Of a stretch of DNA of 64,000 bases, positions 45,601 through 51,600 are shown one piece after another. Made by a program: the position numbers. The first letter of the stretch is position 1. Each line of letters starts with the position of its first letter. Source of the stretch: an uncultured delta proteobacterium (GTDB lineage Bacteria > Desulfobacterota > Desulfobacteria > Desulfobacterales > JAHEIW01); the NCBI GenBank assembly GCA_963706575.1, contig CAVPNL010000003.1, positions 384,001 through 448,000 of the forward strand. Direction: 5' to 3'.

Positions 45601-48600
45601 ATGTGGCCGAGACATTGAAGACTCTCGAATTTGCCCTGCCGTTTTACCCGCTTAAAGCAGTCAGTTTCTGGCTGGGATTGGAAAGTCCCGTGTGGCAGCA
45701 TCCTAAAAAATTCGGGGCCCAGGCAGTGTTTAATCATCCCAACTACGCCTTTCTCTTCCCTGAAGGAATTCGTCGAACGTTGCCGTTGATGATCCAGGCC
45801 TATCGTGGAGACCTGACATATCAGAAAAAAATCTGGAAGCCGGTGAAAAAAAGGATCTCCGATTGGCAAAAACAGTATGTGGAAATTCAAAAGGGATCGG
45901 GCGATTCACCGATCTTAAGCTTTCGCGACGGAAGAAATTTCATGATCATTCGCCAGAAGCGATTTCGGGCCGAGCCTGCCGTTCATCGCCTGGTGGGCGC
46001 TTCCAGAGAAATCTACTTATTTTGCCAGAAGCACCGCTCGATCAAGGCCATCTTCTCTGCATTTCCCGATATATCGCAGGATACCATTGAAAATTTTTTA
46101 AGTATGATGGCAGATAAGAAGTTGATGTTTGCAGAAAAAAATAAGTATTTGAGCCTGGCGTCGGCGGTGAAGTAAAAAAGATAGCGCCCATCTCAAAAAT
46201 GAGCATCTGCCCCTTGACAGATAAATAGCTTATATGCAACTAATGCGTGTTAGAAACCCATATTGAAATTAAGGACTTAATGCTTATCTTACTTTGTAAC
46301 CAAATGCTGCTAGCCTAAACAACACTGCGCCTCAGAACGAGCAACGATCTCAGAGATGAAGTTTTTTGAAGGGGAGCGCCTATCACGTCTCAAAGAACTT
46401 TATTGAACACGCTCATCAACCATATAGTTTTCACATTCAATGTATTCGTGTTTGAGTCTATTTAAGAGAGAAAAAACTGGTTCCGTGGACCATGAGTTAC
46501 CTTGGCGAGCTGACATCCGGACCGATCAAAAATATCGGTATTAAAAGGAGGAGGAGTCGACATGGGGAATATAAAAATTGCGATAGTCGGTTTAGGGAAC
46601 TGCGCCAGTTCACTGGTACAGGGAATTTACTATTATCGTGATCGAGGCCCTATAAATGCCATCGGCCTGATGCACTGGGAGATCGGAGGCTACACGCCCG
46701 GCGATATTGAAGTGGTGGCTGCCTTTGATATCGACAAGCGCAAAGTCGGCAAAGATGTTAATGAAGCCATATTTTCTCTCCCCAACTGCACGACGGTGTT
46801 CTGTGATCACCTACCCGCCGCAGGGGTTACCGTGCGGATGGGCCGTATTGCGGACGGCGTCGCCGATCATATGAAGGAATATGAAGACCGCTACACCTTT
46901 TTGCCGGCAGATCTGCCGGAGCCTTCTTTTGAAGACGTTGTCAGGGTACTGAAAGAATCCAGGGCTGACATTCTTTTGAATTATGTGCCCGTTGGCTCGG
47001 AGAAGGCGGCTCGCTTTTATGCAGAATGCGCGCTGGAGGCCCGTGTGGCGTTGGTCAACAACATTCCGGTGTTTATTGCCAGCGATCCGGAGTGGGCCAG
47101 GCGTTTTGCTGAAAAAAATGTTCCGTTGATCGGCGACGACATTAAATCACAGCTGGGCGCCACCATCACCCACCGCGTCTTGACCGATCTGTTTAAAAAA
47201 CGCGGTGTCAAGATGGAGCGTACCTATCAGTTAAATACCGGTGGAAACACGGATTTTCTCAATATGCTCAACCGCCATCGCTTAAAATCCAAAAAGAAAT
47301 CCAAAACCGAAGCCGTTCAATCGGTTGCCGCCCGGCGATTGAAAAATGAAAACATCCACATCGGCCCCAGTGATTACGTGCCCTGGCAAAAAGACAACAA
47401 AATTTGCTTCATACGCATGGAAGGCAAGCTTTTCGGTGATGTCCCCATGGACCTGGAACTCAGGCTTTCGGTGGAAGATTCACCCAACTCCGCCGGAGTG
47501 GCCATCGATTCGCTGCGCTGCGCAAAGCTGGCGCTCGAGCGGGGTGAAGGCGGCGTCCTGGAAGCGCCATCCGCATATTTCTGCAAGCATCCCCCGCGAC
47601 AGTTCACCGACGATGAAGCCTATCAAATGCTGGAAAATTTTATTAAAAAATTTCCGGGCAACGTTCGTGAAATGTCTGATTATCGCCGCAAAAAAGGGCA
47701 AGAAGTCACCGCAAAAGAAAAATAAAAGCTGTTAGCTGAAAAAATTCAAATTCGGTCTGGAAACAGTTTCGAGCGGCCGCTCAAAAAATCGCTGAAGATT
47801 TTTTTTCGCTTCGGCCATATTTTCAGCCCTTTGGATGCTGCTGAAAAGGGTATGGCCGAATTTGAAATTGGCGGAAAAATAGAATCCAAATTTTTTAAAG
47901 CGCCGCAATGCCTTAGGCTGATCAAAATGTTTCTCCAGAAGCCCGGCCAGCCGCAAGGCACTTTCTAGATAAATCTCGGAACAGCACTGATACCCGTCCG
48001 TCCATTCTGCAAACAACCAGGGTCTGGCGATCGCCATCCGCCCGATGGCCACTCCGTCACATCCGGTGGTCGTAATCATCTTCAGGCAATCCGTTTGATC
48101 AAAAACATCGCCATTACCGAACACCGGAATGGCCACCGCCTGCTTGACCCTGCCGATATATTCCCATTTGGGCGGCCGCGAGCGGCGGTCGGGTGCCGCC
48201 CTGGGATGGAACGTCAATGCATCCGCGCCGGCGTCTTCGAAACGCCGGGCCATGTCCATGGCCATTCGGGGATTATCTTTCCCGCCGATGCGGTATTTGA
48301 CGAATAATGGGATGGATACCGCTTTACGGACTTCAGACACGATTTTGGCGGCCAGGTCCGGCGTATTTAAAATTGCCGCACCGCCATTTTGCCGGCATAT
48401 GGATGCTTTGCAACAGCCGAAATTGATGTCGACGCCAAAAAACTGTTCGGCTTCAATGCGTCGCGCGGCAGCCGCCATGTTCATTGGATCGCCACCAAAA
48501 ATCTGGCAGACCAGATGGGAAAGCTCGGCATCACGCCATCTGAAATAGGTCGACCGCTGCCGATTCTCGTTTGGAATTCTTTTGGCACTGCACATTTCGG

Positions 48601-51600
48601 TAAACAGCAGGCCGTATCCGCCGTAGTTTTGAACCAGTTGCCGAAAGGCCACATTGCCCAAAAATGCCATCGGGGCAAGAACCAGTCGCTTTTCAATGGA
48701 GGTGTTACCGATATTCAGCGGGCGGTTTAGGATGTCGGCAAGCTTTAAATTCATATTCGCTCACTTCGTTCATCCTGCTTATGGCAGGAGAATGTGTGAA
48801 TAAGGGGATAATACGACAGGGTCCTTTATTTTTAAGGGCTCCGGTTGAATTTATCAGATTTACTGACCATTTGAAACCGCTTTTCGGCTGTGCAGGCGGC
48901 ATTTCGCTGTCCTTTGCAGCTAAAAACGCTTATTTCATTTGAAAAAGCAGGATTCATCGAATATAGTTTTTCCAAAACCCGTTGATTCAACCGCATGCCA
49001 GATAGGTGGCACGTAATCTTTTAGGTCTCTTTGATATAATTACCACAGAGCCCGCAGAGCACACAGAGAAAACAATCCAAAACTCGATTCTTATAAATTC
49101 TTTTTCTGTGGTCTCTATGCGCTCTGTGGTAAAAAAAAACTTCCAGGGTACGGCATGATCGAAAAAGGGATCGCTGTAATCGGTTCAACGACCATCGATA
49201 AAATTATCCATCGGGATTTCAGCCGGTTTAAAATCGGCGGCGTAACAACATACTCGGGAATAACCTACAGCCGACATGGCATCAAGACTTGGGTGCTGAC
49301 CAACATAGCCAACCGCGATCGCGAAATTATCAAGCGATTAAAGCAAGAATCCATCGTCGTCTGTAACGGTCAGACCGAAAGCACCACCTGTTTTAGGAAT
49401 CTGCTTAATGATGGTGACGATAAACGCCGGCAATATATTCTGCAGCAGGCCGCCCCCATAAACCGGAGCCAGTTAAACGAAAATCTCAAGGCTGTCGGTT
49501 TTGTTCACCTGGGCCCCTTACACCCGTCAGATATAGACGTGAGGGCCATCGAATTGATAGACCGTCTTAAGCCTCTGGTTATCCTGGATGTCCAGGGTTT
49601 TCTGCGATCTTTAAAAAACAAAATCGTCTATCCGGCGGTTTCAGAGCATTTGCCTGCAGCGATGCGGGTTTCCCATATCGTAAAGGCGAACCGGCAGGAG
49701 TATGAGTCCCTCATTGACTTTTTCCGGACGGATTTAACGGAATTAATGCGCCAATTTAAAATCAACGAATTCGTTGTTACAACCGGACATAAAGGCGGTT
49801 TCGTGCAAACGATTACCGGAGAAGAAATCACTTATCCGGCAGCCGGTAAAAAATCGAATGGAGACCCGACCGGTGCGGGTGACATCTTTTTGGCCGCATA
49901 TGTTATCGACCGGTTCTATAACCGCCGATCGATTAGGGAAGCCTGTCAATATGCGGCAAAATTAGCTGCCCGGCAAATCGAAGGAAACTATATCAAGCCT
50001 GACGATCTTTCACTTGAGGATTGGAAAGAACATCGCTTCTGAAGGGGTACCCAATGGCCGGTACAAATCGACGCTTACTTCCAGAAAGTTTACAAAACAT
50101 ATTTTTGAGACTGTTGGATCCGCTGGTTAGAGCGCTGGCCAAACGGAGGATACATCCCAATAGCCTCACCCTGGCCGGATTCGTTATTACATGCATGGCT
50201 GCGGTTGCGCTGTCCAAGGGCAGCCTGCGCACCGGCGGCCTGTTGATCTTGCTGGGCGGATTATGTGACAGCCTTGACGGCAATCTGGCCCGTTCCACCG
50301 GCAAAGCGACCCGGTTTGGCGCTCTGTTAGACTCCGTAATTGATCGCTATTCCGAATTTGTTATGTTTTTGGGCATTGCGGCCTATTTTATCATATTAAA
50401 AAACTATTTTATTTTAGTCGTGACGTTTATTGCGCTGTGCGGTTCAATAATGGTCAGCTATACGCGAGCACGGGCTGAAAGCCTTGGATTTGAATCAAAG
50501 GCGGGTATCACCCAGCGTGCCGAGCGGATTGTTTTTTTGGGATTCGGCGCTTTAATCCATCCGATGGCTTTTAAACTGTCTATCTGGCTCGTCGCCATTC
50601 TATCGAATATTACGGCATTGCAACGCCTTCGCCTGACCGCTAAGCATGAGGCAAGCCTTAGCGATCAAAAGCCGCCGATCGACTCATAAATCCTGCCGGT
50701 CGAGCCCAATGGCATTCAAATATTAAATCAAAATCTGGAGATTTTGCGAGCACGCCCACCCTTTTAAGGGTTGCACTGGAAATGTATAAGGCGTCCGGGG
50801 ACCCGCGCTTCTATCCGCCGTTAATGCTCGTGCGGATGGTGAAAAACAAAGAATCCTGCGGCGAGCTCAGCCGAGTCGAAGCCACTCCCACCTCTCAATG
50901 CCATAAGTGGGAGCGGCATCCTGCCACGAAACGCAGCTCCGGGAAGAAAGATAGGCTTTCGAAACCAATTTTAGAAGGATGTGTGTTGGGTTCTGGATAT
51001 GATCTCCTCCTGATGATCCGTGTCCAGATCTACGAAATAATCACTGTATCCCGCCACCCGCACCAGAAGATCCCGATATTCATGCGGTTTCCGTTGCGCC
51101 CGTCGCAGGATTTCAGAATCGACAATGTTAAACTGAATATGATGCCCGTTGAGGTTAAAGTAGGTGCGGATCAGGTGGCACAATTTTTCGATGCCGTCTT
51201 CACCCTGCAGAACGCCGGGCAGAAATCTCTGATTTAACAGCGTACCGCCGGATTTAACCTGGTCCATCTTGGCCAAAGACTTGATCACCGCCGTAGGGCC
51301 ATTGCGGTCGGCGCCATGGGCCGGCGATGTCCCGTCTGAAATCGGCAGCCCGGCCAGACGGCCGTTGGCCGAGGCCCCCAGCATTTTCCCGAAATAAACA
51401 TGGCAGGTGGTGGACAGCATGTTGAGATGATAGGTCGTCCCCTTGGTATTGGGTTTACCGTCAATGGCGCCAAACAGGTCGGCATATACCCGCTGCATGA
51501 TTCCGTCGGCTTCGTCGTTGTCATTGCCGTAAAACGGTGTTTTATTTAATAACCGCAATCTCAGGGCCTTTTGACCTTCAAAATTTCCGCGCAGGGTCGT

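Follow-up and report, generated by a model that had tools for sequence, protein, structure and literature searches.

Genes for a probable inositol phospholipid route in Desulfobacterales sulfate reducers, with later loss of lipid A

Introduction

Does a locus coding for an inositol-3-phosphate synthase, a PfkB-family kinase and a CDP-alcohol phosphotransferase enable uncultured Desulfobacterales to make inositol phospholipids, and would such lipids have taken the place of lipid A? The question is raised by a window of 64,000 nucleotides (contig CAVPNL010000003.1, positions 384,001 to 448,000) from an uncultured delta proteobacterium, whose initial annotation predicted inositol phospholipids as a family-wide trait of a sulfate reducer lineage that has lost lipid A. 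DsrA is matched by profile with 607.9 bits (cut-off 392.85).

As described in PMC9246714, bacterial inositol lipids are rare and occur mostly in Actinobacteria, Spirochaetes and Bacteroidetes; phosphatidylinositol (PI) is also reported from myxobacteria (PMC9131029). The accessible text on one Desulfobacterales lipidome lists PG, PE and cardiolipin and leaves inositol unmentioned (PMC11181052), and in the accessible, mainly open-access literature no paper was found that treats the synthesis of PI or the loss of lipid A by these Desulfobacterales. PI and many sphingolipids are reported to occur in anoxic marine sediments and waters, and Desulfobacterota are listed as likely to produce sphingolipids (PMC12619533, PMC11334938).

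Results

As outlined in Table 1, the three annotated reading frames were all found on the forward strand. Their description as lying together applies to pfkB and g01105: the ATG of g01105 (50054) follows the pfkB stop by 11 bases, and an alternative TTG start at 50021 overlaps this stop. ino1 is set apart by a Dus gene that runs in the opposite direction, so that the three do not form one operon. The Dus gene, divergent from pfkB, is kept by synteny beside the pair in the families f1 (the family in question), f11, f30 and f65 and is probably a mere chromosomal neighbour. In genus g1 the radical SAM methyltransferase gene precedes ino1, as the synteny of G022 and G005 shows, and nothing in its profile or in this synteny ties it to the inositol pathway. 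The HypD gene is convergent with g01105 and a neighbour only.

Table 1. Genes of the inositol locus and its flanks (window positions).
Feature	Position	Strand	Assignment
radical SAM methyltransferase	44313..46175	+	RiPP maturation, TIGR03975 354.6/281.85; flanking
ino1 (g01102)	46562..47725	+	myo-inositol-3-phosphate synthase by family, short (actinobacterial/archaeal) type, 387 aa
dus	47732..48754	-	tRNA dihydrouridine synthase, DusB-like, PF01207 209.8 bits; between ino1 and pfkB
pfkB (g01104)	49155..50042	+	PfkB/ribokinase-family kinase, myo-inositol kinase branch, 295 aa
g01105	50054..50689	+	CDP-alcohol phosphotransferase, PIP synthase branch, 211 aa from ATG 50054
hypD	50971..53331	-	trans-4-hydroxy-L-proline dehydratase, NF043068 1220/1100; flanking

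The assignment of g01105 as a CDP-alcohol phosphotransferase accepting inositol phosphate is well supported by residues, predicted fold, gene tree and gene context. The signature DxxDGxxAR...GxxxDxxxD (D72, D75, G76, A79, R80, G89, D93, D97) is invariant in 46/46 aligned sequences, and so is the inositol-phosphate site R98, S135, Y136, R138, R140, R155 and R191. These latter residues correspond to R94, S132, Y133, K135, R137, R155 and R195 of Mycobacterium tuberculosis PgsA1, with K135 replaced by R; the roles of such active-site residues are described in PMC6506517 and PMC4634129. By sequence profile the PI-phosphate (PIP) synthases (E 1e-37) rank before AF2299 (6e-23) and DIPPS (4e-18), while as fold matches of the predicted model PIP synthases (Z 20.4-22.3) and AF2299 (21.4-21.5) tie, followed by IPCT-DIPPS (19.0) and PgsA (11.7-12.2). 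In the gene tree the orthologues form one clade (SH-aLRT 99) within MIPS-adjacent transferases, separate from DIPPS, CpgA and PgsA, and 17 of 46 metagenome loci of at least 4 kb with g01105 relatives contain a MIPS gene at least 50% identical to a reference.

The profile scores first reported for g01105 were reproduced: NF040950 162.3/180 and NF045883 147.6/170, both just under the cut-offs, and pgsA TIGR00560 40.6/109.1; NF052561 gave 159.6/350. Since the curated cut-offs of NF040950, NF045883 and NF052561 are missed, g01105 is best described as a protein that would work like a PIP synthase, not as an equivalog member. An identity as PgsA was rejected on the TIGR00560 score and the low Z, the true PgsA being encoded elsewhere in the genome (TIGR00560 174.9/109.1). 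Production of a soluble compatible solute by g01105, either di-myo-inositol phosphate or glycerophosphoinositol with CDP-inositol or CDP-glycerol as substrate, is very improbable. The closeness of the AF2299 and IPCT-DIPPS folds and the occurrence of IPCT-DIPPS systems in other genomes of the order would fit such a product, but NF041135 scores only 72/580, no IPCT stands at the locus (G000 has a weak partial match, 31% over 132 aa) and the tree places g01105 apart from DIPPS-type proteins; on these grounds DIPP synthase was rejected. The predicted model moreover shows an N-terminal juxtamembrane helix (residues 11-30), which in PIP synthases lines the lipid groove according to PMC4634129.

PfkB, which the initial annotation had not recognised as an inositol-kinase relative, is by profile and fold closest to the two known myo-inositol kinases, TM0415 (E 6e-40) and TK2285 (E 2e-20), the next family following at E 4e-12. 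The top fold match of its predicted model is 5ysq/5ysp (Z 32.6, rmsd 2.6-2.8 over 264-266 residues). The five inositol contacts D12, G26, Q136, R140 and D219 of TK2285 all have equivalents, of which D15 is conserved in at least 90% of 34 sequences and G28/G29, Q147, R151 and D243 are invariant. As reported in PMC5931981, TK2285 uses ATP and yields Ins3P, whereas TM0415 uses PPi and yields Ins1P, its true acceptor being uncertain with a Km of 12 mM. Of the TM0415 PPi set K171, R229, R232, F221 and M266 only K171 is kept (K177); the arginine positions are occupied by P238 and A241, and the F221 position is not aromatic. With this signature missing, the PPi-dependent type was rejected, and PfkB is probably ATP-dependent. 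The Ins 3-kinase type is not matched either, as the leucines at the TK2285-type positions 77/87 are replaced by N82 (invariant) and Q93 (at least 90%). The acceptor pocket with N82 and L122 is TM0415-like, and according to the title of PDB entry 7e4l the exchange N78L/S89L turns TM0415 from a 1-kinase into a 3-kinase. Since the pocket resembles that of the 1-kinase with its asparagine kept, the product position is uncertain; PfkB may yield Ins(1)P, an isomer not known as a PIP synthase substrate.

g01102 is an inositol-3-phosphate synthase, its activity being predicted from family membership: PF01658 scores 126.3 bits (Pfam gathering score 27) and the best PDB match is M. tuberculosis Ino1 1gr0 (E 5e-117, residues 3-361), with a score below the mycothiol-linked equivalog TIGR03450 (444.7/638).

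Full-length g01105 orthologues are present in 19 of 25 family genomes, as originally counted, and in 6/6 genomes at least 90% complete; one further copy is a fragment where a contig ends. The adjacency of pfkB, noted before for 10 of 11 loci, was borne out: the gene immediately precedes that of the synthase in 18 of 19 loci, the remaining locus is cut by a contig end, and pfkB on an overlapping contig of that genome brings the pair to 19/19. As a family-wide trait the pair stands, and the term is even too narrow, for orthologues span five Desulfobacterales families, four of which form one clade in an RpoB tree. For the window-type Ino1 it does not hold (21/22 genomes of genus g1, 1/3 of g2), the linkage being genus-level. 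Outside f1, pfkB is unlinked to the synthase in G053, G131, G279 and G108 and was not found in the synthase carriers G034 and G169. Inheritance of the kinase-synthase pair was vertical across a Desulfobacterales clade of several families.

The MIPS that supplies inositol phosphate varies by lineage. Window-type Ino1 adjoins the pair in 13/16 family genomes having both, is unlinked in G001 and G015 and is scattered across many other families of the order. PF01658 proteins are present in 4/5 f30, 3/3 f11 and 1/1 f65 genomes tested, with no match in G002 (84% complete) or G279 (96%); in G274 the sole match, next to a gene for a sugar isomerase, may belong to a different pathway. It is improbable that the chief role of Ino1 is to supply an MshA-like glycosyltransferase pathway while g01105 and PfkB handle another phosphorylated polyol. 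An MshA-like GT4 protein scoring 322-362 bits (cut-off 462.5) stands in f1 genomes in a conserved cluster with GNAT and hydrolase genes and would be a second sink for Ins3P, and the unlinked and scattered Ino1 as well as the uncertain TM0415 acceptor are consistent with it; however, the inositol-phosphate residues of g01105 and the inositol residues of PfkB are retained, and the 13/16 linkage likewise speaks against it. A complete mycothiol pathway was rejected (MshA 322/462.5, a weak MshB-like PIG-L protein with 92.6/224, and no more than a single CysRS-type motif in an incomplete assembly). Use of Ins3P by an MshA-like pathway could hold alongside lipid synthesis.

The statement that the lineage has lost lipid A applies to most of genus g1 and not to the family, in which G002 and G003 keep lpxC, lpxB and kdtA. 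A bamA-ompH-fabZ-lptF-lptG locus without lpxD/A/B and msbA was found in G004, G005, G011 and G022; these genes are also gone in G001, which keeps only lpxC, and in 4/4 f30 loci, and lpxC is missing from its syntenic site in G000. lpxA/B/C/D, msbA and kdtA were judged absent from intact loci in the lipid A-free lineages, which excludes G002, G003 and G006, the last keeping lpxB and msbA. BamA was found in 9/10 genomes (missing only in G000) and LptD in 5/5; LptA, B, C and D are kept in G000 and LptF and G in relatives.

In the order sample lpxC is lacking in 14/23 synthase carriers vs 22/278 other genomes (G001-G003 are additional) and serine palmitoyltransferase (SPT) is present in 17/23 vs 13/278, counts which are not independent, as one clade unites four of the five families. 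Among 30 families listed, the two without lpxC in all sampled genomes, f1 and f30, carry the synthase. These figures would suit a PI, glycerol-based or glycosylated, that directly replaces lipid A in its function, as the initial annotation implied. We consider this a poor prospect: 9/23 carriers as well as G001-G003 keep lpxC, and the families f11, f65 and f85 hold both synthase and lpxC, which leaves the replacement unsupported. Lipid A was lost at least three times within the multi-family clade, after the pair was present; with 9/23 carriers keeping lpxC, inositol lipids are older than the loss, not a one-for-one substitute. Nor do PimA/PatA-type genes stand beside the pair in the carrier loci examined, unlike in some metagenome relatives.

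The sphingolipid locus fits the losses better. SPT profiles score 628.7/500 and 642.5/500 in relatives of G000. Within f1 SPT is present in the lipid A-less G001 and was not found in the lpxB-keeping G002, G003 and G006 (79-87% complete). It was also not found in G000, G004, G009, G016 and G017, all without lpxC; the G000 assembly has a gap at that segment. Where assembled, the SPT genes of lipid A-less lineages lie mostly within a Caulobacter-type locus of spt-acp-cerR-aas with CerS-like, ceramide kinase-like, Tam41-like, phosphoesterase and flippase genes and, in some, dedicated lptFG. As the losses fall in lineages with SPT, an anionic sphingolipid is a likelier outer-leaflet substitute than PI.

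These loci also bear on the lipid substrate of g01105, which might use CDP-ceramide instead of or beside CDP-diacylglycerol. A CpgB-like enzyme would phosphorylate ceramide, a Tam41-like CpgC would activate it, and Ins3P would be coupled and the product dephosphorylated, giving an inositol phosphoceramide exported by Lpt, retained as above, in place of lipid A. We regard this as possible, if unlikely. The spt loci of G022, G005, G011, G053, G131, G304 and G274 hold ceramide kinase-like, Tam41-like and phosphoesterase genes with no CDP-alcohol transferase in between, whereas the non-carriers G072, G200 and G294 have a CpgA-like transferase there; genome-wide CpgA searches were negative in G022, G005, G177 and G274, the best match being the g01105 orthologue in three. 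An NDP-ceramide from CC_1161 and an unknown condensing enzyme have been proposed in PMC11324152, where CDP-ceramide itself is a proposal only. However, G244 has CpgA and synthase together, G311 has neither (the G115 locus is cut at that point), and synthase is present with no SPT found in f85 (2/2), G002 and G003. The f30 and G311 loci lack CerS, the spt loci of G001 and G088 lack cpgB/C, and the synthase gene never adjoins spt. A short motif for the Aur1-like synthase (BT_1522) of the Bacteroides-type inositol phosphoceramide route had no match in G000, an incomplete assembly.

Discussion

Taken together, these sulfate reducers probably follow the two-step route of prokaryotes to an inositol phospholipid, with a vertically inherited pair and a later loss of lipid A; the prediction of inositol phospholipids is thereby upheld at the level of predicted function. 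Ino1 would convert glucose-6-phosphate to D-myo-inositol 3-phosphate, which g01105 would join to a CDP-lipid, most likely CDP-diacylglycerol, to give PIP. Dephosphorylation to PI, the most likely product, would fall to a phosphatase, probably the single PgpA-family protein of the genome by analogy with BT_1525, and PfkB would re-phosphorylate free inositol for salvage or recycling. Lipid A was lost later, an anionic sphingolipid being likelier to fill its place in the outer leaflet.

It is rather unlikely that the clade built its outer leaflet from inositol phosphoceramide by an undescribed route, with a PIP-synthase-type enzyme acting on CDP-ceramide and the kinase recycling the head group. 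On this reading the Caulobacter-type locus would have lost its own transferase in a clade that repeatedly abandoned lipid A; if true, the lipid could serve as a biomarker of these sulfate reducers.

Inositol-lipid genes, lipid A lost in several branches and sphingolipid genes kept point to an unusual cell envelope in uncultured sediment sulfate reducers. f11 with both pathways, the intermediates G001 and G006 and the complete losses form a natural series for diderm survival without lipid A, and the locus supplies candidate producers and enzymes for sediment PI and sphingolipids.

Comparison with known systems

M. tuberculosis Ino1 and PgsA1, the Renibacterium PIP synthase and archaeal archaetidylinositol phosphate synthase (NF040950) share with the locus the Ino1 type, the CDP-alcohol phosphotransferase motif and the inositol-phosphate arginines, as well as the six-helix fold with juxtamembrane helix (for g01105 in the predicted model). 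In contrast to them, g01105 falls under the equivalog cut-offs, occurs in diderm sulfate reducers without pimA/patA beside it and is paired with an inositol-kinase relative.

Among the lipid A-free or lipid A-dispensable diderms with sphingolipids, Sorangium cellulosum So ce56 contains ceramide phosphoinositol. Sphingomonas and Caulobacter with its CPG/CPG2 locus CC_1152-1168 (PMC9393093, PMC11324152, PMC12275187) share lpx loss or dispensability, retention of Bam/Lpt and the sphingolipid genes; the f1 and f30 loci of these anaerobic sulfate reducers differ by the absent CpgA/CpgD step and the presence of inositol genes.

Bacteroides thetaiotaomicron BT_1522-1526 (PI-DAG, inositol phosphoceramide; PMC9246714, PMC8791184) likewise combines MIPS, PIP synthase and a PgpA-type phosphatase in a sphingolipid producer, and BT_1523-like metagenome proteins share a broad tree branch with g01105. 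Here, however, no pgpA or Aur1-like gene stands beside the synthase and the sphingolipid locus is Caulobacter-type, whereas Bacteroides has retained lipid A, with lpxC, lpxB and kdtA detected in a control search. PfkB, finally, is closest to TK2285/TM0415 by sequence and fold, with a TM0415-like pocket lacking the PPi signature; compared with these kinases as described in PMC5931981, its gene is coupled with that of a lipid synthase instead of with an inositol catabolic cluster.

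Organization of the inositol locus

The initial annotation had described ino1, pfkB and g01105 as lying together, and its genes, coordinates and HMM scores were all reproduced. The grouping itself is looser than described, as ino1 and pfkB are separated by an oppositely oriented dus gene, and Ino1 is encoded beside the pfkB-g01105 pair in 13 of the 16 family genomes having both. The window corresponds to G000:C3:384001-448000, and the GC content of the locus is ordinary for it. The host genome, whose named relatives are uncultured Desulfobacterales, encodes a DsrA scoring above cut-off.

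Features of the inositol locus and its surroundings in the window
Feature	Position	Strand	Remark
RiPP-maturation radical SAM methyltransferase	44313-46175		exceeds the TIGR03975 cut-off; position upstream of ino1 conserved in genus g1
ino1	46562-47725	+	ORF
dus	47732-48754	-
pfkB	49155-50042	+	ORF
g01105, CDP-alcohol phosphotransferase	50054-50689	+	ATG at 50054, 11 bases past the pfkB stop
trans-4-hydroxy-L-proline dehydratase HypD and activase	50971-54246		HypD 1220/1100; adjoins the pair in many family genomes
SelD-like gene (presumed)	54863-55826		one gene split into two ORFs in different frames

A scan for promoters and terminators gave 8 and 10 sites versus 6.7 and 6.6 in shuffled sequence and was uninformative. 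In a check for expression, four runs contained no more than 5-6% of the sampled words; all four were contigs, matching in short dispersed pieces of which none extended across the genes, and they were uninformative. The split gene downstream, which we take from its sequence to be SelD-like, reflects either a frameshift or an assembly error; its counterpart in the related genome G022 is a single ORF of 312 aa. In many genomes of the families f1 (the host's own), f11 and f85, not in the host, the synthase is followed by a same-strand gene resembling 3-hydroxyacyl-CoA dehydrogenases (L182:7574-8581 and equivalents). In the neighbouring family f68 (L363, genome G231) dus is grouped with ino1 and a CDP-alcohol transferase more distant from g01105, so that inositol genes may have occupied the dus site since long ago.

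Assignment of the synthase, the kinase and Ino1

The best solved relatives of g01105 were the mycobacterial and Renibacterium phosphatidylinositol phosphate (PIP) synthases, with E values of 5e-25 for the single sequence and 1e-37 for the profile, the matches to AF2299 (6e-23) and IPCT-DIPPS (4e-18) being weaker. Among 46 aligned homologues the CDP-AP motif was invariant, as were the counterparts of R94, S132, Y133, K135, R137, R155 and R195 at the inositol-phosphate site of PgsA1 (residue roles described in PMC6506517 and PMC4634129). The AlphaFold model (pLDDT 85.6) superimposed on PIP synthases with Z 20.4-22.3 and rmsd 2.2-3.1 over 182-197 residues, tying with AF2299 (Z 21.4-21.5), versus just Z 11.7-12.2 for PgsA. 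In a tree of 67 transferases, obtained by a quick method and weak at its deep nodes, the g01105 orthologues formed one clade (SH-aLRT 99), the nearest branches being encoded beside genes for myo-inositol-3-phosphate synthases (MIPS), with DIPPS-type, CpgA-type and PgsA proteins outside these branches. Of 595 metagenomic relatives 80 loci were kept, 46 of them of at least 4 kb, and 17 of these 46 contained a MIPS gene. As g01105 stays below the cut-offs of the equivalogs NF040950, NF045883 and NF052561, we describe it as working like a PIP synthase without assigning it to any of the three.

The host encodes a separate true PgsA and one PgpA. The homolog search returned nothing but close relatives, many orthologues of g01105 (P0002-P0115) being labelled PgsA by one source, a label that would conceal the pathway in standard annotation; the ESM Atlas held nothing beyond generic PfkB and CDP-AP clusters for pfkB and g01105. 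A 538-aa protein with two CDP-alcohol transferase domains (PssA-like) is encoded beside murJ twice in the assembly (G000:C17:42937-44541 and C22:60641-61789).

The kinase, initially annotated plainly as PfkB, is placed here with the inositol kinases: its profile matched TM0415 (E 6e-40) and TK2285 (E 2e-20), versus 4e-12 and worse for other ribokinase-family proteins. Its fold alone discriminates little, since adenosine kinases (Z 30.5) rank between TM0415 (Z 32.6) and TK2285 (Z 29.8) against the model (pLDDT 92.4). Each of the five residues with which TK2285 contacts inositol has a conserved counterpart in the kinase (D15, G28/G29, Q147, R151, D243). Of the PPi signature of TM0415 it keeps K171 alone, and ATP is therefore the likely phosphate donor. 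TM0415 forms Ins(1)P (PMC5931981), and the title of PDB entry 7e4l states that N78L/S89L turns it into a 3-kinase. The invariant N82 of the kinase aligns with N78, and a Gln occupies the second position; the kinase may therefore form Ins(1)P rather than Ins(3)P, which counts against a simple salvage role.

Ino1 matched PF01658 with 126 bits (cut-off 27) and, over its whole length, Ino1 of M. tuberculosis (E 5e-117), followed by a five-membered-cyclitol synthase (E 2e-55); within the family it is 75-95% conserved.

Distribution in the family and order

The family sample comprised 25 genomes, 22 of genus g1 (host included) and three of g2. In agreement with the initial annotation g01105 was found in 19 of them, full-length in each; G018 holds a fragment, no g01105 was found in four genomes of 68-79% completeness, and the match in G024 is a different protein, a fusion. 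This IPCT-transferase-HAD fusion (about 700 aa) is shared by members of two families, in closely matching gene surroundings (L368, G024:C71; L367, G178:C250), owing to transfer or bin contamination. The proposed fixation of the kinase-synthase pair also held, pfkB being adjacent at all 19 loci (at one across an overlapping contig). As a family-wide trait the set is less uniform: the window-type Ino1 occurs in 21/22 g1 genomes (once as a contig-end fragment) and in one of the three g2 genomes, and the synthase extends into other families.

Among 301 genomes of the order, 23 carry orthologues (at least 53% identity), distributed over f1, f11, f30, f65 and f85. In an RpoB tree (52 rows, single gene) the first four families group together (SH-aLRT 99) and f85 falls outside them, weakly supported; the g01105 tree broadly matches the families. 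In carriers outside f1 pfkB is adjacent at most loci and unlinked or absent in six. The window-type Ino1 was not found in f11, f30 and f65 of this sample, which had suggested the kinase as sole source of Ins3P there; this was ruled out by a longer MIPS type in 8/9 genomes tested.

Loss of lipid A

The proposal that the lineage has lost lipid A applies to most of g1: LpxC and KdtA are missing from all 22 g1 genomes and LpxB occurs in one; in g2, LpxC (3/3), LpxB (2/3) and KdtA (2/3) persist. In the host, lpxC is cleanly gone from its syntenic site in mid-contig. The assembly also lacks the whole bamA-lpx-lptFG-lolC-gmk segment, a long stretch outside the window which in G022 holds lolCD, bamA, ompH, fabZ, lptFG, gmk and the sphingolipid (spt) locus; since essential genes are missing with it, this is an assembly gap. 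Absence claims from the host alone are thus unsafe, so that it was discarded as proof beyond lpxC, and relatives of higher completeness supply the evidence. Four g1 genomes (91-97% complete) have the operon lolC-lolD-bamA-ompH-fabZ-lptF-lptG, with lpxD, lpxA, lpxB and msbA gone. A different scar, also without lptFG at the bamA site, is seen in G001 and four f30 genomes, while in G002, G003 and G006 the lpx genes visible at this site persist. At the bamA site G001 (L199, G001:C1:17000-36999; L088) has lost lpxD, lpxA, lpxB, msbA and lptFG; it retains lpxC and gave no kdtA match, making it a possible intermediate. Scars and RpoB tree together indicate at least three losses: in most of g1, in G001 and in f30. 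BamA and LptD are retained, in the host also LptA, B and C.

In the order sample lpxC is present in 265/301 genomes and missing from 14 of the 23 synthase carriers versus 22/278 non-carriers, a comparison that counts kin as independent and whose Fisher tests are not usable as probabilities. Nine carriers keep lpxC, and the synthase is thus older than the losses.

The sphingolipid locus

Serine palmitoyltransferase (SPT) scored above cut-off in 30/301 genomes, including 17 of the 23 synthase carriers (by family, f11 7/7, f30 7/7, f65 1/1, f1 4/8, f85 0/2). Within f1 it was found in G001 and not in G002, G003, G006 and G017 (79-92% complete); it is present in G024, sister to the host by RpoB, and in G022 it lies within the segment missing from the host. 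The f35 genome G180 (93% complete; L335) has SPT, with no match to lpxC and no g01105 orthologue, possibly a further lipid A loss tied to the sphingolipid alone. Where lipid A is lacking, the spt locus still contains a gene for an LpxL-family acyltransferase (L269:2517-3521, L272:17731-18687), an enzyme that may acylate another lipid.

At the loci of seven carriers in which the relevant part can be seen there is no CpgA-type transferase; three non-carriers have one. Strict complementarity with g01105 was ruled out by G244, which has both, and G311, which has neither.

Proposed pathway and comparison with known systems

Ino1 would convert glucose-6-P to Ins3P, which g01105 would join with CDP-DAG to PIP; a PgpA-type phosphatase would release PI, by analogy with BT_1525 (PMC9246714), and the kinase would return free inositol to the pathway. 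The chemistry is predicted from sequences and models and is cheap to check. That some inositol phospholipid is made, as initially proposed, appears probable, and this full account is reasonably likely; ceramide as a lipid anchor is improbable. The accompanying view of a lipid A loss spread over the family did not hold. An MshA-like glycosyltransferase (322-362 bits, cut-off 462.5) may also draw on Ins3P; MshB and MshC were not evident in a search for the mycothiol pathway. In f1 an MshA-like glycosyltransferase forms a conserved three-gene cluster with a GNAT protein and an alpha/beta hydrolase (L228, G000:C6:665425-668674).

The spt loci resemble Caulobacter CC_1152-1168 in spt, acp, cerR, acyl-ACP ligase, CerS-like, ceramide-kinase-like, Tam41-like, phosphoesterase and ABC flippase genes, in some genomes also in a second lptFG. 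The CerS and CerR labels are presumed from gene position rather than from an HMM. Ceramide phosphoinositol occurs in some myxobacteria. PI has also been reported from Thermodesulfobacterium, which, if true, would reduce the novelty for the phylum. Gene roles in the Caulobacter locus are given in PMC11324152 and PMC12275187; there, an anionic sphingolipid sustains life without lipid A, and Sphingomonas naturally lacks LPS (PMC9393093). The predicted chemistry bears on how diderms manage without lipid A.

A search of titles and abstract openings found no literature on PI synthesis or lipid A loss in this group; the supplementary tables of PMC11334938 on SPT-bearing MAGs may already include some of these lineages. 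Each enzyme type is already known. Three aspects appear to be new: the lineage; the constant association of a PIP-type synthase with a relative of inositol kinases; and the setting, a clade of sulfate reducers in which a Caulobacter-type sphingolipid locus is combined with recurrent loss of lipid A.
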